Shown: positions 13,502-48,500, numbered from the stretch's first letter. The stretch is DNA of 64,000 bases from Octopus vulgaris (GCA_951406725.2 OX597819.1:129580001-129644000), one strand, 5' to 3'. The notes: generated by a model not told the origin, from the sequence alone. Numbers and translations are program-made.

Positions 13502-13970
<469 letters not shown>

Positions 13971-14036
13971 TTGTTTCAAGCCTTATGTACGTTTATTTTA
14001 TTCACTTTATTTACTCAGTGTTTTGTTTCTTTTCAG

Positions 14037-15321
14037 CAGTCACAGTTTCACTCGGCTTCTAAGTCGACTCTGCTCAATAAAGCAGTGCATGACATATCTG
14101 ACTCGGATGCAACAGAAGAACCAGAGTCTCTCCCAGACTCAGAACCTGACTCTGATGTTACAGTTGATCCTGATACCTTAGCATACAATAGTGGTCAAGA
14201 TCTCTTTTCTGACTATTCCAATAACTCTTTTGATAAGGCGGACACTGTAGTCACACCTTGTCTATCTACGGAACTTTTGAAAATAATGTCTTCAAAAAAA
14301 TCCAGACAAGAAACACATGCAATTTCTGAAAGTGATTCTGACTCGGAAAGCGAACAAAATTCTAGAAGTAAATACAATTCCAAGCACCATGTCCAGAAGT
14401 TATCCAGTTCTGTCAAAGTCGATTCCAGAAAGCATCAGAATCCCTGCCGCGAGAATGGCTCTCGGTCTTCTTCACATGAATCCAGACAGAAAGCTAATAA
14501 AACAAATCATCATACTCTTCAACATAGCTCTTCTTCATCTTCAAAAGATAGTTCTAATTCTTCAAAAAAATCATCGCATAAACCTGATAGTTCAGCTGTT
14601 AACGGGTCAGAATTATTTTCAAATCCAGTAAATTTATGTCATCGTTCGTCTTCTCTGCCCAGCCAATCAAACAATTCATCGACATCAAAGAAGACATCCC
14701 ATTCTTCTCCTACTCCTACTCCTACTCCTACCCCTAAGAAAACATCCCATACAGAAAAGGCTACGAATCAAAATAATACTTCATCTTCTTTGAACTCAAA
14801 AATGCATGATATTTTTGGAAGTGATTCTGATGAAGATTTTGTTGTAAATAACAATTCTAGTGATAGCGAGAATGAGAGCAGTAGCAACAGTGATGTAAAT
14901 GGCAACTCACCAGAGACAAACTCCCATAGTCCCATGACACATTCATCATCAAGTCATCATAAAATGTCACCATCATCTTCACATTCATCTTCTTCATCTT
15001 CTGCATCAAGTTCTTCAGATTCAGATTCAGATTCAGATGATGATAACTCAAGCGTTGATACGCATTCGCCAAAATCTAAAATCAAAAGTGTTAAGTCAGA
15101 CAGCTCTGACACTTCCCACAAACCCTCCAAAACAAACTCTTCAGGTAAAAGCTCTGTCACATCAACAACTGAAACTGCCTTAGACAAATTGGTTTCATCA
15201 TCTGAAGACAGTGAAACTGTTAAAAGAAAACGGCCAGTCACACCAACCAAACTTATTTGCAGGTTTGGAACTGCTTGTACAAGAAAAAATCCTACACATT
15301 GGGAGGACTTTGAGCATCATG
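14037..15321 (+). CDS. TDP1: TDP1 exon A: large Ser/Asp-rich N-terminal exon ending in a PBZ zinc finger
   Basis: Acceptor tttcag|CAG at 14036/14037 (NAGNAG alternative 14040). Open frame for 428 codons, first in-frame ATG at 14286. Donor CATG|gtaatt, phase 1, matching the next exon. The 5' boundary is less certain than the 3' boundary. Confidence 0.85.
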
Positions 15322-15917
15322 GTAATTATTATATTTTCCCTTTTTCTTTGCCCTTTTATTTATTGTTGTTTATCAAAAAATTGTTCTGGTTGGCTAGCGG
15401 TTATATAAATTTTTGTAGTTTATATAGTATTTTTTAAAATTGCACAGAATTGAAAGCCAAATCTTTCGAAGCCGTGTATCAACAATACGATATTCCTTTT
15501 CAAGAATGCACCATCAGTGATGTTTCTGGGGTCTCAAGAGATTTCAGCCCTTTCAACATCAGGACACTTTGCTCAGTTGACCCACCTGGTTTATTGAATA
15601 AAAAATATTCCAGAAAAATGCCTACAAATTATTTAAACCTGGATATATATATATATATATATTCTACCAAATATATACGTTTTTATTATTATTTTGCATT
15701 TTACTTAATCATTGGTATATTATTGTTATTTTATTTTCAACATTTCTATTATATGTAATTTTCTAAATGGTGTAATTTAATTGTTCATTTTGAATTGATA
15801 ATAGGTGGTTTTTTTCTAATTTTTATATATATATATATTATATTTTGTGAAATCTGATTTAGTAGTTCTAAATTGAATTTTTCCCTGTAAGTTAGGAATA
15901 ATATTCTGTTATATAAT

Positions 15918-16787: not shown

Positions 16788-17789
16788 GTGGAAGCGTAAT
16801 GGCCCAGTGGTTAGGGCAGCGGACTCGCGGTTTCGATTCCCAGGCTGGGCATTGTGAGTGTTTATTGAGCGAAAACACCTAAAGCTCCACGAGGCTCTGG
16901 TGGAGGGGGGTGGGTGGCGATCCTTGCTGTACTTTTTCCCCACAACTATGTCTCACACTTTCTTCTGTTGGCCTGCTCGCTTAGCCAGCGGGGTGGCGTC
17001 GTTTGAAGGCTAAAACAATGTAAAGCGCATTGTGACCAGCGATGTGTAACAACATCTGACAGCCTGGTCGGTCACGGGGATCATGGTGGTATATGTATAT
17101 ATGTAGAAAGAGCAGTAAACAATATTTAATTACAAGTTTCATGATTAAATTTTTTATTTGCAGAGATTGAGGAGAAGAAACCTTCTGTGAAGAAACAAAA
17201 GGCAAATAATGACTCGCCGCCTGCTGCTGCTTCAGTGTCTAAGTCTCCTGTTGTCTCCCCAACGACAGAGAAAAAGTCTCAATCGGGGGATAAGCCAATG
17301 AGCTTAGAAAAGTCTATCCGTACAACATACCGTGAGGGTCAACCTTTCAGCTTCTTTCTTACTCGTGTTAAAGGGATTAGTTCACAGTACAATTCCTCTT
17401 TTGTCATGGGAATCTCTGGTAAGTAATTTTTTTCTTCTTTTTACCCTAATTCATATTTTTTTCTTCTTACTTGTTTTTCTTTTTTTTTAACACCCTGTAC
17501 ACTATGGATCTCTATTGCAATCAGACCTGGACACAATGCAGCAGTGGATCATGGACTGGCAACTCAAGCTGGCTGTGGACAAATGTACCACCATGCATTT
17601 TGGGAGGAAAAACCCAGCGTCTACCTACTCCCCCCACAATACTAATCTCAAAAAATCTTCGTGTGAATGTGACTTGGGTGTTATTGTCGATAGCGATTTG
17701 CGTTGGACAAAACACATCGCTAAAATTGCCAAGAAGGCTGAGGGTGTCTTGGCATCACTCACCAAGTCCTTTGTGAGCTGCTCTCCGGC

Positions 17790-17828
<39 letters not shown>

Positions 17829-20800
17829 TGTGTACAGTGCTCAGGTGCACTACAACTCATCTAAAGTCTATATATAATCAGGTGAAGTTTCGGCGGATTT
17901 CGGAAAGCATGAGGGCCTTAAAAGATGCAGTGTCATGGCAGTCAACAACTGACGCAGGCAGTTTATTCCATGCTTCAGCAACTCTGAGCGTGAAAAAATG
18001 TTTCCGAAAGTCATGGGAGCTGTATTGTTTTCTGACTTTGTAGGCATGTCCACGTGTGTTAGACACATGGAGATCAAAAAGGTGTTCAGTGTTGTTGTTG
18101 GTGAGGTGGTTGATAACTTTGTGGGTGTTTACCAAGTCCGTCGCCAAACGCCGGAGCTTCAGTGAATCCATGCCCAGGGAAACAAGGCGCTCAGAATATG
18201 GTAGGTGTCTGATGGAGGGTATGCGTTTGGTTGCACGTCTCTGAACAGATTCCAGGAGGTCAATGTTCTGTGCAAGATAGGGGTTCCAAACTGATGATGC
18301 GAATTCCAAGTGTGGTCGTACCATAGCTGTATACAGTTTTAAATAGATGGCTGGAGAGCGGCTAACAAAAGACCTGCTGAGTGATGCCAAGACACCCTCG
18401 GCCTTCCTGACAATCTTAGAGATATGCTTTAACCAACGCAAATCACTGCTGACAGTGATGCCTAGGTCACGCTCGCAAGAGGATTTCTTGATATCAGTGT
18501 TGTGGAGGGAGTATGTGAACGCAGGGTTTTTTCTCCCAAAATGCATGGTGGTACACTTGTCCACAGCCAGTTTCAGTTGCCAGTCTGTGATCCATTGCTG
18601 CATTGTGTCTAGGTCTGATTGCAGGAAAGAGTTGTAGACATCAGGATCTGTCCTCTTGATTTCAAGGTACAGCTTGATGTCGTCTGCATATTTCAATACT
18701 GTGGCATTCCTTAAATTGGCATCTATGTCGTTAATGTATGCCACAAACAAGAGGGGGCCAAGGACAGATCCCTGTGGTACACCCGATGACATCTCATATG
18801 GTGTAGAGTGCTGTCCTAGAACTGTGACTACCTCCTTTCGGCTGAGGATGAAGGATTTCAACCAGTTAAAAAGGTCATCCCCCACACCCATTGCAGAGAG
18901 TTTCACCATAAGCCTTTTGTGTGGCACAGAGTTGAAAGCCTTAGCAAAGTCAAGGTAGACAACATCCACCCATGAGCCACTGTCAGTAATCTGAGTAATG
19001 TCCTCAAGGAACTCGACAAGCTGGTCACTGCAGCTGGAGTTAGGGACAAATCCATATTGTGGGGGTCGGATGAGACTGTGAGAGCTCCAGAAGTTCCAGA
19101 GTGTTTCTCTGACACACGATTCCATCAGTTTTGCAATACAGCTAGTGAGACTGACTGGGCGATAGTTGACAGGTGATGTGCGGTCGCCCTTTTTGAACAG
19201 AGGAATGACACTGGCAGTTTTCCACTGCTCCGGAGTAGCACCATTGTTGAGACAGTACTGGAAGAAAATAGAAAGCTGGTGTAAAAGGAAGTGCCTGCCA
19301 CGTTTGAGAAGCAGGTATGTAACTCCATCGAGACCAGGGGAGGCATAGTTGCGCTTATTTTGAAGGTGACATCGCAGCATTGCAGGTGTAAATTCCATAG
19401 TTGTTATGGAGTTTGCTGTTAGTGATGGTGAAGATGGTACATTTTGACTTTCAACAGTGAATATGTTTGCATAGCACTCGGCAATGAGTTCTGCGCATTC
19501 CTTGGGGTCGTCAGTGATCTGGTTTGTGTGAGGGTTGCGAAGAGGGCCCACTGGAGAGTGAGGTCTCTGCTTTGAGTGCACATATTTCCAGAAAACCTTG
19601 CTGTCAGGATTGGCTGCTATGCACTGTTCAAATTCAAGCACTGCTTTTTTTGTCACTTGCTTGAGATGGTTGGAGGATTTATTCCGCTTCTTCCTGTTGG
19701 TGTCTGATTTATGCAACCTGTATTCCCGTTCAGCAGTCCGACGTTCCCTCCTGGCAAGTCGGACCGCTGAAGTTTCCCAAATTGCCCTTTTGGGGCGGTT
19801 CTTCTTTTTTTGTTTACGTGGCACTGATGCTGCACATGCTGCCCATATTGAGTCCAGGATACTCTGGAGTATAGTATTCACATCTCCAGAGTTGTAGAAT
19901 TCACGCCAGTTTGGGTGCTGTAGTTCAGTGTGGTACAGGTTCCAATCTGCTCTCTTCCAATCGAAGGAAGCAGATTGGAGATGGTTCAGGTTTTTGTTGC
20001 CCGCAAGAGCCAGATTGGCGATGATCATAGCATGATCAGAGTCACCTAGAGGTTCCTCCGTAGTGCAATTGATAACCGCTTCAGGAGTTGTGGTGAAGAG
20101 CAGGTCCAAGGTGTTGTCGCCTCTTGTTGGAGAGGTGACTACTTGTGACCAGTTTGAGTCCAGCACAAGCTCAACAAAATCGTTTGCACTCTGTGGCCAA
20201 TGGAAGGTCTCCCAATCGATCTCAGGATGATTGAAATCGCCTGCAATAAACACATAAGTGGCTGTTTTCCTGGCAGCAGCTCGGAGGACATTGCAAAGCT
20301 GTGTGTCCCGATGGTAACTTGGGGGACGATAAACAACGCCAAGCAGGAGTGTTGACATGGTCATACGCACGTCACAGAAAAAACTTCTTCTTGTGATTCG
20401 TTCAAATCGGCACAAGGAATTACCAAAAAATTTGAACGAACGTAGACCATCACACCACCACCACGGCGGTTAGTGCGGTCCTTACGGAAGAGGTTGTACC
20501 CCGTAATGTTGAAAACCCCATCACAGAGTAAGGAATGCGCCCATGTTTCCGTGACAGTGATGAAGTCAGGGTCAACACTTCTGACGTAGGCGTTGAACAA
20601 ATGTATTTTGTTGCATAAACTGCGAGCATTTAAGGACAACAATTTGTACCCTGCTCGCAGTTTATGATGGTGTGTAGAGGATGGCAGGTTGTTCTGGCTT
20701 AGTTTCCCTGAGTTGCTGTAGTTTTTTTAGTTATTGTGGGTAGAGAGCACTCAGACCAGCTGGTATCTCTTCCACGTTTCAGCAGTCTTGACAAATCTCC

Positions 20801-22467
20801 AGATTTGTCCATCTTCCCGAAGACTGAAGCTTTCCTGTAGAGCTGAGTTCCTATTCAGGGAAGCCACTACACGTAGCTTTGGGCGTACATCGGACGGTAA
20901 GCCTGGGCGTGTTCGGAAGGTGGTCCGATTTTCCCGCCCAGCTTTAACTGAGGCCAGATGGTAAGAGGTTGCCTCAGTGGGGTCCGTAAAAGACAACTTG
21001 ATGAGCCTAGGTTTTGGGCCAGGTCGTCCAAGGCGGATAGCACCCGTTGGGGGAACGCAGCCTAGGTCTTTGGCTGAGTTGGCAGCAAAAGCCTGAAGAT
21101 CAGCCATGTCTTCTGGCACCCCAATGGCAATGACTTCATGGGTGGCAGAATCCGCGGTCTTAAATGCGACAAGAGGTACAGGTACAGGGAGGTTCTTTAG
21201 CAGAGCATTCCGATAAGACCCCTCATTGTGGAGTCCAACCTGAATGGTTGCTTTTATTCCTGCTACTTCCCCTTTTAAAGCACAGATCGATTGTTGCAGT
21301 TCTGCAAGAACCGCACTGGTCAATTGGTGTTGTTGTTGTTGCTGCTGTTGCTCTGGTTGTGGTTGATTTTGTTGTTGCTGTTGTTGTTGTTGATGTTGTT
21401 GTTGCTGCTGCTCTGGTTGTGGTTGATTTTGTTGTTGCTGCTGCTCTGGTTGTGGTTGATTTTGTTGTTGCTGCTGCTGCTGCTCTAGTTGTTGCTGCTG
21501 CTGTTGTTGTTGCTGTTGTTGTTGCTGCTGCTCTGGTTGTGGTTGATTTTGTTGTTGCTGCTGTTGCTGTTCCGCCTCCTCCACGGGAGTGGCAGGGGGA
21601 GACACAATCGTCGGTTGTGGAGGCACGCAGGCCTGACACTGAAAAGTCCAAGATTTAAGCTGAACCATCTTCCAGAGTCTATCCATCATAGCATTATGAT
21701 GGCTCTTTTTTTGGCCTGGGATCTTCTGAAAGTCCGTGGCACATTGGAGGCAGACAGAGATGAGACATGTCCCACATTCGACCCAGCGATTACGGAACGT
21801 ATTTTCGGGTTCCGTACAGATGTGGCAGGTGTGATTTTCTGGGCAGTGTTCTATTTTAGAGCAGCGACCAGTCTTATCGCACGCCGCTATGGATTTCACC
21901 ATGGCGATTCTGTTGGTTCTGGTCATCCGTAGAGACAGAAAATGTATCTACGGCTTTATATAGTTATGGTGTGACCAAGAGAATACCCTCCATCAGGCAT
22001 TTTCCATATTCTGAACACCTTACTTCCCTGGGCACGGACACATTGAAACTCCGACATCTGGCAGCTGACTTGGCAGACACCCATAAAATTATTAACCATC
22101 TTACAAACAATAACTTTGAGCACCTTTTCAAACTCCACCTGTCTAACACCCGTGGACATGTTTACAAAGTCAGAAAACAGCACAGCTCCCATGACTTTCG
22201 GAAACATTTTTTTCACGCTGAGAGTTGCTGAAGTATGGAACAAACTGCCGGCATCAGTTGTTAGTTGTCGGAGCACTGCATCCTTCAAAACTTCCATGAT
22301 TCCTGAGATTCGTCAACACTACACCTGATTTTCACCCCTCCATACACACACAAGCATGTATCTAACTCATACACTGTTCGCTTCCCAGACATTTGTACAT
22401 TACTGCATATACTTTATACGCACTTTCTGACAAGTTGTGGTGCACCTGAGCACTATATACAATAATT

Positions 22468-22516
<49 letters not shown>

Positions 22517-32509: not shown

Positions 32510-35500
32510 CATACATACATGCATAGATACATACGTATGTACATATGAGATGTCATCGGGTGTACCACAGGGATCTGTCCTTGGTCCCCTCTTGTTTGTG
32601 GCATACATTAATGACATAGATGCAAATTTAAAGAATGCCACAGTATTAAAATATGCAGACGACATCAAGCTGTACCTTGAAATCAAGAGGACAGATCCTG
32701 TTGTCTACAGCTCTTTCCTGCAATCAGACCTAGACACAATGCAGCAATGGATCACAGACTGGCAACTGAAACTGGCTGTGGACAAGTGTACCACCATGCA
32801 TTTTGGGAGAAAAACCCTGCGTCCACATACTCCCTCCACAACACTGATATCAAGAAATCCTTTTGTGAGCGTGACCTAGACATCACTGTCAGCAGTGATT
32901 TGCGTTGGACAAAGCATATCTCTAAAATTGTCAAGAAGGCCAAGGGTGTCTTGGCATCACTCAGCAAGACTTTTGTTAGCCGCTCTCCAGCCATCTATTT
33001 AAAACTGTATACAGCTATGGTACAACCACACTTGGAATTCGCATCATCAGTTTGGAACCCCTATCTTGCTCAGAACATTGACCTCCTGGAATCTGTTCAG
33101 AGATGTACAACCAAACGCATACCCTCCATCAGACACCTACCATATTCTGAGCGCCTTGTTTCCCTGGGCATGGATTCACTGAAGCTCCGGCGTCTGGCGA
33201 CGGACTTGGCAAACGCCCACAAAGTTGTCAACCACCTCACCAATAACAACACTGAACACCTTTTTGATCTCCATGTGTCTAACACACGTGGACATGCCTA
33301 CAAAGTCAGAAAACAACACAGCTCCCATGACTTTCGGAAACATTTCTTCACGTTCAGAGTTGCTGAAGCATGGAATAAACTGCCTGCGTCAGTTGTTGAC
33401 TGCCATGACACTGCATCCTTTAAGGCCCTCATGCTTTCCGAAATCCGCCGAAACTACACCTGATTATATATGCACTTTAGATGAGTTGTAGTGCACCTGA
33501 GCACTGTACACAATGTTTATTATTATTATTATTATTATATGTACATACATACCTATGTTTTTGTGTTTGCTCCACGCTTGACAACCAGTGTTGGTTTGCT
33601 TACATCCTCATAACCTAGCAGTTCAGCAAAAGTGACCAGCAGAATAAGTACCAGACTTCAAAACAAGTACTGGTGCCGAGTTCTTGTTGGTCACAGTTCA
33701 ATGATCAAAAACAAGTAAAAGATAAAAGAAGACGTGTTCTGTGTGTGTAAATGTGTTATGTGTATATATACACACAAACCTTTCTCTTTGTTTGTATAAA
33801 ACGTCTTCTTTGATAATGGCCATTTTTTTATAGATTTAAGATTTTTTTTTTATATAGATTTAAGAGCATCTTGTGAATATTCCCTCTCTCTCTTTCGGAG
33901 AGGCACTGAGCAGCTATGCGCACACATACACACACGGCAGTAACTTCCACCTACCGAATTCAATCACAAAGCTCCGGTCGGCTCGGGGCTATAGCAGAAG
34001 ACACTTGCCCAAGATGCCACACAGTGGGACTGAACCCGAAGCCATGTAGCTAGGAAGCAAGCTCCCTAACCACACAGCCATCCCGCGCCTACTATGTTTT
34101 AGACAAACGATATTGAGCTTGTGAATAATGTTGCATTTCATAACTCTTTGCTATAATTTCTTAACTATTTTTTCTTCTTTTATAGAAAGATGATGTTTCT
34201 TCTCTATGACAATGGTATGAGGGTTGTTATTCACACTGCTAACCTTATTCCTGGAGATTGGTACCAGAAAACTCAAGGGTATATATTTTTCTTCATAATA
34301 TTTTTATGTAGGATTCGTTCCAACCTATTCTGATTTACAATAACACATTTACGATATTCTTGCATTTCTTCTTTATCTTTTTACCACTTTCTCACTTTTC
34401 TTGCCCTGTTGGTCAGGCACCTGTGGCTTTTGTGGACTTCCCATGAGTAGCCCTAAAGCACCTGTGGCTTTTGTGGACTTCCCATGAGTAGCCCTAAAGC
34501 ACCTCGCCCTATTGAGAGTTTTATTTGTTTAATTTTGACTGTTGTTTACACGCTTTTAAAACCCTTTGTTTTGTCCTGTTTTGTCCTCTGTTGTTTTATG
34601 TAAGCCCTTGTGGCCAATAAACGAAATATTATTATTATTCGGCCGATGCCAGCGCCGCCCCGACTGGCTCTAGTGCCGGTGGCACATAAAAAACACCATC
34701 CGAACATGGCCGTTGCCAGCGCCGCCTTGGCTGGCTTCCGTGCCGGTGGCACGTTAAAAGCTCCAACCGATCGTGGCCGATGCCGGACCCCCCTGGCACC
34801 TGTGCAGGTGGCACGTAAAAGCACCCACTACACTCGTGGAGTGGTTGGCGTTAGATAGGGCATCCAGCTGTAGAAACACTGCCAGATCAGACTGGAGCCT
34901 GGTGCAGCCCCTGGCTTCCCAAACCCCGGTCGAACCGTCCAACCCATGCTAGCGCGGAAAAAGGACGTTAAACGATGATGATGATGATGATTTGCTTTGT
35001 ATTATATGAGCTGATCCAAATCTCACCCAGTGACTTCAAGACATATTAAGCTAGAATTCTTAGTGTGTGTGTTATTTCAGAGAAAGGCAGCCAAGTTCAA
35101 AGAATTAAGGCTTCGTTAAAAACTTGTTATTTTTTAAGGGCTCTCGTATTTTTGCATTGATAGTATTTTTAGTTAGGAACGATTTTTTGCTGTTCTAAAG
35201 GGTTTTGAATGAGAGTCAAAAACCTTCAGAACTACATGCATGATTCCGGAGCATCAACTCAGACTGGTTGGTCATGTTGCTCAATTTTAGACTTGGATCC
35301 TGCATTTCGTGTTCTTTTCTCTGAGGATCTGGCTGGGGTGAGAGCCCATGTTGGTCAACCACGTGTCATAGGGTCATGGTGGATGAGGAAATATGTTACA
35401 GAGAAGGGGACTAACTGGAACAAATACTGGACAAATGCTCTTCTCTGCAAACTTCTGGTTTTGGTGCTCTTGTTAGAAATGGTTATATGAAAGAATTGGT

Positions 35501-45592: not shown

Positions 45593-48500
45593 TCTCATAT
45601 ATGGCCGCAGTCAAATGACTGAAACAAGTAAAAGAATAAGAGAATATGTAAAAAATGTGAGCAAATAGGCTTCTTTCAGTTTCTCTCTACCAGATCCACT
45701 GACAAGGCTTTAATCGGCCCAGGGATATAGTAGAAGACATTTGCCCAAGGTGCCATGCAGTGGGATTGAACTTGGATCCATGTGGTTGAAAAGCAAGCTT
45801 TTTACAACACAGCTACACTTGTATAAAAAAAATTTTTAATAATATTTTGTGTCCTGTAGAAGTTTAACTAGTTTATTGGACATAAATTTTAGCAATAAAA
45901 TCTTCTGTAGACCTTCATGGGTCATATGGACTCTAGTTAAGGATTTAGATTTAGATTGAAGAAATACGAAGGAAAATAGTTGGTGGTAGAACTTTTGATA
46001 TTCAGAAAAATATGAGCAACTATTTCCGGTTCACAAAACACAATATTTTTTCACTTTTTCTGTGAAATGACAATTTTGTAATGTATATAATAATAATGAA
46101 ATGATTGTCTACAGTGTTCAGGTGCACCACAACTTGTCAAAAGTGCGTATAAAGTATATGCAGTAATGTACAAATGCCTGGAAAGCGAACAGTGTATGAG
46201 TCAGATACATGCTTGTGTGTGTGTATGGAGGGGAGAAAATCAGGTGTAGTGTTGACGAATCTCAAGAAGCATGGAAGTTTTGAAGGATGCAGTGCTCCGA
46301 CAACTAACAACCGACGCCGGCAGTTTGTTCCATGCTTCAGCAACTCTTTGCGTGAAAAAATGTTTCCGAAAGTCATGGAAGGAGCTGTGCTGTTTTCTGA
46401 CTTTGTAAACATGTCCACGGGTGTTAGACAGGTGGAGTTTGAAAAGGTGCTCAGAGTTATTGTTTGTATGATGGTTAATAATTTTATGGGTGTCTGCCAA
46501 GTCAGCTGCCAGACATCCGTGTTTCAATGTGTCCATGCCCAGGGAAGTAAGGTATGTAAGGAATATTATCTCTGCTAATATTTTTTGATTAGAAATCACT
46601 CCTCTCGTTACACACGAAAAAGCTCTAAATTGAAAAAACGATCCTACTACACTAATAATAGGTTATTGGTAACTGTAAGCCATCGATCAACGTTTAACCG
46701 CCATCACTAATGCGATGCGGAATTGTCTCCCTTGCACCCATGGATTAGTTCTTTCTCCGTGGTAAAATCTAAACGGTTCTTTTATTCTTTTACTGCTTTT
46801 AGTAATTGTGGTGCAAGCTTCAGTCTGTTATATTGACACTGGTATTTTGACTGGTACTTAATTTATCGATCCTTGCAAGGAAGGGAGGTAAAATGGACCT
46901 GGTGGCGGTGGCGACGTCTTTGACCCAGAATATATAGGAATATAACCAAATATATTTTTTTATTACTTGTTTCAGTCATTTGACTGTGGCCATGCTGGAG
47001 CACCGCTTCTAGTCGAGCAAATCGACCCCAGGACTTATTCTTTGTATGCCTAGTACTTATTCTATCAGTTTCTTTTGCTGAACTGCTAAGTAACAAGGAT
47101 GTAAACACACCAACATTGTTTGTCAAGCAATGGGGGGAGGGGGCGGGGGCAAACAGACAGACAGACACACACATAAAATATATATATAAATGGGCTTCTT
47201 CCAGTTTTCATCTTCCAAATCCACTGACAAGGCTTTGGTTGGCGCAAGACTTTAGTAGAAGACGCCCAAGGCACTATGCAGTGGGATTGAACCCAGAACC
47301 ATGTGGTTGGGAAGCGAGCTTCTTACCACACAGCCATGCCTGCTCACACACACACACACACATCAGGCCTACTATGTGTTTAAAAAATTTGCTTCGCAGC
47401 CACATGGTTTTCAGTTCTGTCCTGCTACGTGACATCTTTGGCAAGTGTCTTTTACTAAAGCCTCAGGCCAACCAAAGGTTTGTGAGTGGGTTTGGTAGAC
47501 GGAAGTTCAAAACGGCCCCTTTCTGTGTGTTTGTGTCTGTTTGTCTTGACATCACATGATGGTTATAAACGTCATTGTCATAGAAGCAATATTATTTGTT
47601 TCCAATGAAAAAATTTCTCTGGCTTTGGCTAAATATTGGCTTGCTTAGAAACAGGCGATACACACACAGCAGGAGGGGGTGCATTCAGACATAGAAAAAA
47701 ATTTACCTCAGTGAATTCTGTCTGATCAGAGAGAGAGAGCATGGAAAAGTAAATGTTAAAATTCTGACCCACTCCTCTTACCTCCACCCACGTTCACCAT
47801 TCACTGCATTCCCCTCTACCTCCATCTCTCTCCATCTACCACTCTCCTTTCACACTCTCATCAATTTACTAACCTTCCCACTTGCCCTGTCCAATTCTCT
47901 GTACCACTTCTCTTGTCTTCACCTTCCTGTGACTCGAAACTGTCCTCTGGTGCATCTTCACCACCATCTCTTGGGACAGCCATGTATCTCCTCTGCAGCA
48001 AGATACATGTCCCTGTCTTCCTATCATAATTTAACCCATTAGCATTCATAATACGTTGTTAAATCATCATCTAACATCTGTCTTCCATGCTGGCATGGGT
48101 TGGACGGTTTGACAAGAACTGACCAGCTAAAGTGCTGCCCAGACTCCACGTCTGTTTTGGCATGGTTTCTACAGCTCGATGGCCTTCCTAATGCCAATCA
48201 CTTCACAGAGTGTACCAGGTGCTTTTACGCAACACTGACCTGGGTGCTTTTATGTGGCACTGGCACAAGTGCACTTTACGTGGCATCAGCGCCCATGAGC
48301 CTGCAAGATTAGGAACACTCAGCAGGAGAAGGATTCAAGGGGCCGTACCTGTCTGCAAGGACAACTATGATTTTACTTAGTTTCACCTATTCTCAAGCAC
48401 AGCAAACTGTCAGGTGTCTCAGTTCCTTGTCATTGCCTCTGTGAGGCCCAATGTCTGAAGATCCTATCTCACCACTTCGTCCCATGTCTTCCTGGGTCTG

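Follow-up and report, generated by a model that had tools for sequence, protein, structure and literature searches.

A slippery heptamer at the ORF1-ORF2 junction of CR1-like LINEs in Octopus vulgaris and a predicted -1 frameshift route to ORF2

The LINE copy in the window and its family

The window analysed here, a 64,000-nucleotide stretch of the Octopus vulgaris genome (GCA_951406725.2, OX597819.1:129580001-129644000), was found to carry on its minus strand a LINE copy (17805..21946) of a family here designated A. The copy is truncated at its 5' end within the 5' UTR, closes with an (ATT)n tail and shares 99.76% identity with the intact copy L098 across 4145 nt. ORF1 of this copy (20751..21926, minus strand) includes a PHD-like N-terminus, a poly-Q stretch, a coiled coil, an RRM and a CTD, and it is closed early by a premature TGA (20753-20751) because an AG run in the ORF1 tail (20762..20773, minus strand) is 2 nt short relative to the other copies. 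The remainder of ORF2 (17878..20469, minus strand) encodes an APE endonuclease and a reverse transcriptase (Pfam PF14529, E 8.5e-14, and PF00078, E 1.1e-37), and is disrupted by a T run (20375..20387, minus strand) that is 1 nt short relative to the intact copy. These two losses, of 2 nt from the ORF1 tail and of 1 nt from the endonuclease, mark the window copy as dead. Family A has the make-up of a LINE, namely an ORF2 with APE and reverse transcriptase, dispersed 5'-truncated copies and a simple-repeat (ATT)n 3' tail, and it is young, its copies being 99-100% identical and many of them retaining a full-length open ORF2.

An ORF1 with PHD plus RRM, together with a microsatellite 3' end, is the type found in CR1-group elements. 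In the model of an ORF1 relative, P0001 (mean pLDDT 55), the coiled coil, RRM and CTD are visible, the best Foldseek match is the L1 ORF1p trimer (E 4.8e-4), and residues 395-405 of the tail are at pLDDT <50. The PHD finger at the ORF1 N-terminus is a lead only: Atlas hits of 0.90-0.92 carry PHD families on 11-21% of their members, and the window ORF1 protein gave no Pfam match to PHD. The reverse transcriptase tree (FastTree, 113 of 115 rows) was almost without named references, two bird hits having been removed by the RT-length filter. In relation to the CR1 LINE proposed in the preliminary description, the element is here called CR1-like, by its CR1-group architecture only. The ORF1 of vertebrate CR1 is, in the accessible text of PMC13343379, of the esterase type and unlike the ORF1 described here.

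The family A copy is inserted in an oppositely oriented 3' fragment of a second family, B (17494-17792 and 21974-22494, plus strand, 90-93% identical to L066). Further 3' fragments in the window belong to family A (32542-33536, plus strand, 96% identical to L098) and to family B (46087-46552, minus strand, 89% identical to L066). Positions 13767-15437 of the plus strand hold a long open frame rich in Ser, which is probably a host exon, and the LINE cluster lies downstream of it. Full-length family A copies (L006, L007, L017, L018 and L028, positions 1-570) begin with an AT-rich 5' region of >500 nt that contains an internal direct repeat, and their ORF1 frame is open for about 90 codons 5' of the first ATG.

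The ORF1-ORF2 junction and its conservation

On the minus strand of the window, GGGAAAC (20708-20702) is followed directly by TAA (20701-20699). The heptamer G_GGA_AAC is in phase with the ORF1 of the family, whose stop codon is the triplet immediately 3' of it (TAA in families A and B, TAG in a metagenome contig, L101, described below). The ORF2 frame opens at 20726 after a TAA (20729-20727) that closes it upstream, and the two ORFs overlap by 28 nt. This frame reads through the heptamer as G-K-L, continues into an open linker of 16-17 codons lacking ATG (20649..20698, minus strand) up to the first endonuclease strand, and meets its first in-frame ATG at 20450-20448, within the endonuclease domain (GGGVM). 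The heptamer with its adjoining stop, the -1 position of the ORF2 frame relative to it and the lack of an ATG between the upstream TAA and the APE motif had all been put forward in the preliminary description, and each is borne out.

The early end of ORF1 had likewise been ascribed to two bases missing from the AG run. Indeed, all 29 other close copies (from a set of 30 loci fetched from 40 listed, in a DNA search with 357 candidates) carry two extra bases in this run, at about 20762-20773, and end ORF1 as ...TTATQGN* exactly at the heptamer; at the level of the family, ORF1 ends at GGAAACTAA. The same 2-nt deletion as in the window occurs in one older copy, L084. Three of the four full-length loci taken for the layout are intact (L098-L100), with an ORF1 of 409 aa ending in QGN* and an ORF2 of 943 aa counted from the heptamer, the first Met of which is codon 86; in the fourth, L097, a break occurs further on. 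At the base composition of the element, a canonical heptamer is expected in phase right before the stop with a chance of ~0.002, and anywhere in the 28-nt overlap with a chance of 0.014.

Two other candidate signals were considered and rejected. The A run at the ORF2 opening, as a second slippery site, is not XXXYYYZ in ORF1 phase and is not conserved, and a UGGGA motif of the calicivirus type is present only in family B and in some older A copies, where it adjoins the stop.

Loci L001-L100 collapse to 75 distinct copies with a parsable junction; outside this set are L069, in which the heptamer was seen by eye, and L077, in which the junction is deleted. A canonical heptamer is present in 72 of the 75 (GGGAAAC in 69 and GGGAAAT, which is canonical too, in 3), the last 3 having single-base changes. 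It stands in ORF1 phase in 69 of the 71 copies with a readable ORF1 anchor, the exceptions being the window copy and L084, and L089, one of the four copies without an anchor, is also shifted. All heptamer-to-anchor distances are multiples of 3 (102, 105, 111, 114, 123 or 126 nt), hence the ORF1 tail has gained or lost whole codons several times and has still ended on the heptamer. None of the 71 readable linkers contains a Met or an in-frame ATG; thus ORF2 has no ATG of its own at the level of the family, and the AUG at or overlapping the ORF1 stop that marks SART1-type coupling is absent from them.

The copies L031-L096 were not selected for the heptamer, because the ORF1 query used stops short of the tail. 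The same query found the older A copies and also family B, at ~60% ORF1 identity, in which ORF1 closes with ...KILGN* on this heptamer and its stop, and the ORF2, again ATG-less, occupies the -1 frame. No further family of this ORF1 clade was found in the octopus genome among the matches examined. The public gene model of the family B ORF1 (P0002, compared with L065) departs from the element after 'FRT', which masks the junction.

The metagenome contig L101, one of 114 pattern matches, carries a more distant relative, its ORF1 being 35% identical to P0001 and its ORF2 53% identical to that of family A. Its ORF1 ends DQQGN* at CAG GGA AAC TAG, at the same heptamer, and ORF2 opens a mere 6 nt upstream. 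In A, B and L101 alike, the overlapping ORF2 uses the -1 frame relative to ORF1, and this frame is open at the heptamer. Identity at fourfold-degenerate sites is 51% between A and B, 37% between A and L101 and 31% between B and L101, and in the 24-nt flanks 3-11 of 24 bases match L101. The 9-nt run GGGAAACTA does not vary among the three; of all invariant runs in the 1022 aligned columns, only that of the catalytic DSDH codons is longer. The heptamer, the conservation of which had been named as a check on the original proposal, is thus kept well beyond its flanks and the synonymous sites.

From G-K-L to the first endonuclease strand, the linker measures 16-17 codons in A, B and L101 and differs by whole codons, and its sequence in A and B shows little likeness to that of L101, which has a Met two codons ahead of NARS. 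P0003, an ORF2 placed within the A/B/L101 clade, has 54 open residues before the endonuclease and no G-K-L. The search of genome contigs gave six distant loci, with the junction looked at in L102 only. This single, more distant copy, on a eukaryote-like contig contaminating a bacterial MAG (~1165-1300), has a similar ORF1 layout (PHD-coiled coil-RRM-like), no such heptamer, and an ORF2 that lacks an ATG and lies in the +1 frame; it is a counter-example to the -1 layout. Nothing was found in the viral contigs searched for more such DNA, and a pattern search for further DNA, which passed over family A since its gap fell one base short, gave as many control matches as real ones.

A change at the RNA level could also set ORF2 in frame, whether by splicing into CAG|G, by polymerase slippage in the A7 run or by A-to-I editing of the stop. 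CAG|G does precede the heptamer in young A copies and in L101, an A run lies at the ORF2-frame opening in young A copies, and in one family B contig the heptamer shows an additional G (run X12, depth 5.5). However, TTG|G or CTG|G stands at this position in family B and in some of the older A copies, family B has no A run, and contigs of four out of four runs (three of them guessed to be RNA) cross the family A junction unbroken, with no indel or joint, a comparison that speaks to presence only. As for editing, readthrough of the ORF1 stop stays in frame 0, where another stop follows 23 codons later. Such a change is given very little credence, the least of the readings weighed here.

Tails of distant ORF1 proteins

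Searching a 50%-identity clustered library with a profile from six ORF1s gave 116 relatives, of which 104 had a parsable tail and the other 12 were excluded; the survey covers proteins only, in which neither the codons nor the ORF2 frame of the distant ORF1s is visible. Gly-Asn was present in 79 of the 104 tails, as compared with 14.3 +/- 3.3 in shuffles (maximum 26 in 2000 shuffles), at 2-34 residues past the last conserved Trp and 0-23 residues before the stop. Fifteen of the 79 tails end exactly on Gly-Asn, and 64 carry 1-23 further residues. After Gly-Asn, a codon beginning with G comes next in 48 of the 79. The cores of the GN-bearing ORF1s have a median identity of 40%. Since the heptamer is G_GGA_AAC, the preceding codon must end in G, and N, D, H, Y, F, C and I have no such codon; not one of the 79 Gly-Asn pairs is preceded by any of these residues, as against 17.8% expected (P 2e-7, this and other P values being nominal because the distant ORF1s are related to one another).

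Among the remaining 25 tails, 16 carry Glu-Asn or Lys-Asn (shuffled mean 7.7, with 1 of 5000 shuffles as high), and GD or GS occurs in none. Glu-Asn and Lys-Asn would be the traces of G_GAA_AAC and A_AAA_AAC, respectively, and in these protein sequences a GN, EN or KN trace is seen in 95 of the 104 distant tails. The EN form is scattered over the tree, with 10 changes for 10 rows in a quick tree with many open forks. The excess of Gly-Asn, the barred preceding residues and the swaps to Glu-Asn and Lys-Asn therefore indicate a nucleotide signal. In the accessible part of PMC5009743, G_GGA_AAC is placed among the shiftiest heptamers, and the 'G_GA' type, such as G_GAA_AAC, is tolerated in natural sites.

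Ser or Gln stands before GN in 62 of the 79 tails, and a survey made at the protein level only would equally detect a short protein motif of the ORF1p tail, [S/Q]-G-N, of which the heptamer would be a codon by-product, ORF2 being made by an unrelated route. This is very improbable. At near-saturated divergence, the synonymous positions are invariant in the DNA of A, B and L101; the swaps are from G to E or K, not mostly from G to A or S, and never from N to D or S; and the motif floats in a tail that is variable in length and modelled at low confidence.

Predicted frameshifting, its stimulator and known systems

The usual spacer between a heptamer and its downstream structure is 5-9 nt, with a minority at 11-15 nt, according to the portion of PMC5009743 available. 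In families A and B, no structure was found 5-14 nt past the heptamer (z +0.5 to -1.6). L101 has a hairpin ~5 nt past it (-15.2 kcal/mol, z -3.2 against mononucleotide shuffles), and its 70-nt window gave z -2.2 against dinucleotide shuffles. The downstream stem suggested in the preliminary description, CCTGC...GCAGG, did not hold up: it has 5 bp, starts 13 nt downstream with a long loop, gives up its 3' arm to a much stronger hairpin and is not present in family B, and folding of the 70 nt past the heptamer is no stronger than in shuffled sequence (z +0.89). The stronger hairpin of family A (20614..20666, minus strand; -28.3 kcal/mol, z -7.0), with a perfect 15-bp outer stem, begins 35 nt past the heptamer. 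It is not in the same register in family B, which reuses the 3' arm with a 5' arm farther downstream, and neither this hairpin nor the weaker, shifted one of family B is at a stimulatory distance. Speculatively, a leading ribosome might be held up by the hairpin at +35 nt, roughly a footprint's length ahead of the heptamer. In older family A copies, the 15-bp inverted repeat contains an A-C mismatch, which is absent from the youngest copies through a non-synonymous change.

Pairing of the bases after the heptamer with the 3' tail gave no top duplex there in family A (L098) or B (L063, L066, L072), in a comparison with no shuffle control. The one strongly recurring pairing partner was the G-rich RRGGG coding stretch, with which the purine-rich linker of L101 cannot pair. 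Pea enation mosaic virus RNA 2 shifts efficiently only with a stop close by, as related in the accessible text of PMC5009743, and the adjacent ORF1 stop is therefore a plausible stimulator candidate.

The main rival to frameshifting is AUG-independent termination-reinitiation, by which ribosomes would restart at a near-cognate codon of the -1 frame after the ORF1 stop, helped by the downstream hairpin, and produce a separate ORF2p. It has a precedent in L1 and, with an AUG and a downstream structure, in SART1, the stop-restart site of which is reportedly UAAUG, going by the title of its paper. The stop directly after the motif in A, B and L101 would suit it, as would the CUGs that form codons 7 and 16 of the family A linker, both having A at -3. 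The one at codon 7 precedes the strong hairpin by 18 nt, and the one at codon 16 has a counterpart CUG in family B. However, no near-cognate start is common to A, B and L101, the register of the hairpin is not conserved, and in 64 of the 79 distant tails the stop lies 1-23 codons past GN, so that the motif is not tied to the stop. Reinitiation, which moreover leaves the retention of an in-phase XXXYYYZ and the swaps to EN and KN unexplained, is considered unlikely.

It appears likely that ORF2 is synthesized as part of an ORF1-ORF2 fusion through programmed -1 ribosomal frameshifting, because ORF1 ends on the heptamer, ORF2 lies one base back without a start codon, and about 100 relatives carry the trace; this comparison of sequences lends support to the gag-pol-style fusion first proposed for the window copy. 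Most ribosomes would halt at UAA and release ORF1p, and a minority, with tRNA-Gly on GGA and tRNA-Asn on AAC, would move one base backwards to GGG and AAA, decode CUA next and proceed through the linker of 16-17 codons into the endonuclease and the reverse transcriptase. The efficiency of the shift is probably low, and the fusion product, of ~1350 residues, would be made at low frequency, giving a low ORF2:ORF1 ratio and an enzyme tethered to ORF1p. As for the stimulator in the octopus families, the slow decoding of the adjacent stop is our guess. A weak search among 7990 candidates found no naturally fused long relative. We hold with moderate confidence the wider proposal that a large clade of CR1-like LINEs (~100 families, ~40% core identity) as a rule makes ORF2 by -1 frameshifting at G_GGA_AAC, or its variants G_GAA_AAC and A_AAA_AAC, the reverse transcriptase occurring solely as an ORF1-ORF2 fusion within ORF1p trimers and some members lacking a canonical stimulator.

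G_GGA_AAC is the heptamer of PEG10 and SRV-1. The junction is like the retroviral gag-pro/gag-pol and viral -1 cassettes, as these are presented in the accessible part of PMC5009743, in having X_XXY_YYZ in phase with a structural nucleic-acid-binding ORF and a -1 enzyme ORF without a start. It differs from them in belonging to a non-LTR element, in the two octopus families having no pseudoknot or hairpin 5-9 nt downstream, and in ORF2, in which a Pfam search found no protease domain to release the enzyme. Pea enation mosaic virus RNA 2, an umbravirus, has the stop just 3' of the heptamer as well, but its 3' structure with long-range pairing, described in the same text, has no counterpart found here.

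Among non-LTR elements, a figure legend of PMC5911963 says that ORF2 of the APE-type TRE5-A and TRE3-A of Dictyostelium requires a -1 frameshift, which makes them two-ORF LINEs with a stated frameshift for ORF2. The accessible text of that paper gives neither a slippery site nor an assay, and that of PMC5006619 has nothing further on the subject. The octopus element differs in its host, in its ORF1 and in a canonical heptamer kept over many lineages. The two LINEs with experimental tests, L1 and SART1, are described in the available portions of PMC2881922, PMC5972666 and PMC11485995 as translating ORF2 by reinitiation. The likeness to human L1 and silkworm SART1 lies in a bicistronic LINE RNA with ORF2 dependent on ORF1 translation, that of L1 ORF2 being AUG-independent, and the modelled coiled coil-RRM-CTD fold of ORF1 here appears L1-like. 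In L1, however, the ORFs are 63 nt apart, and in SART1 stop and restart overlap, both being read as reinitiation that yields separate proteins, whereas here the ORFs overlap at a heptamer and no AUG is present.

The accessible text of PMC5009743 mentions HeT-A, TART and L1 and contains no CR1-type frameshift case, and the words 'frameshift' and 'slippery' are absent from the main text of a 2026 survey of the vertebrate CR1 group (PMC13343379). No description of a slippery site in a CR1-like LINE was found in the literature searched, which consisted mostly of the main texts of openly available papers. The junction is best read as a known mechanism in an element class for which it was found stated solely for the Dictyostelium TREs.

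An unrelated LINE family of the same genome (L110, L114, L122, L123, L125, L128 and L135; e.g. C15:21612192-21615554), with an ORF2 29% identical to that of family A, has a cysteine-rich zinc-finger-like ORF1, and its -1-frame ORF2 opens 3 nt ahead of a U_UUU_UUA in ORF1 phase. This heptamer may be there by chance, since the ORFs overlap by ~140 nt and, 26 codons into ORF2, there is an ATG of its own. In another copy of this family, L134 (C8:68147019-68150381), a 2-nt deletion at the heptamer places ORF1 and ORF2 in a single open frame of 1439 aa.

How ORF2 is translated in LINEs is a long-standing question, and the answers given so far, for L1 and SART1, are reinitiation. If the conserved frameshift signal is true, a large group of animal LINEs would be built on the Gag-Pol plan, with a fixed ratio of enzyme to coat, and the physical tie of the reverse transcriptase to ORF1p would offer a simple basis for cis preference. 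The annotation of these LINEs would change as well, because their ORF2 models currently begin at internal Met codons.
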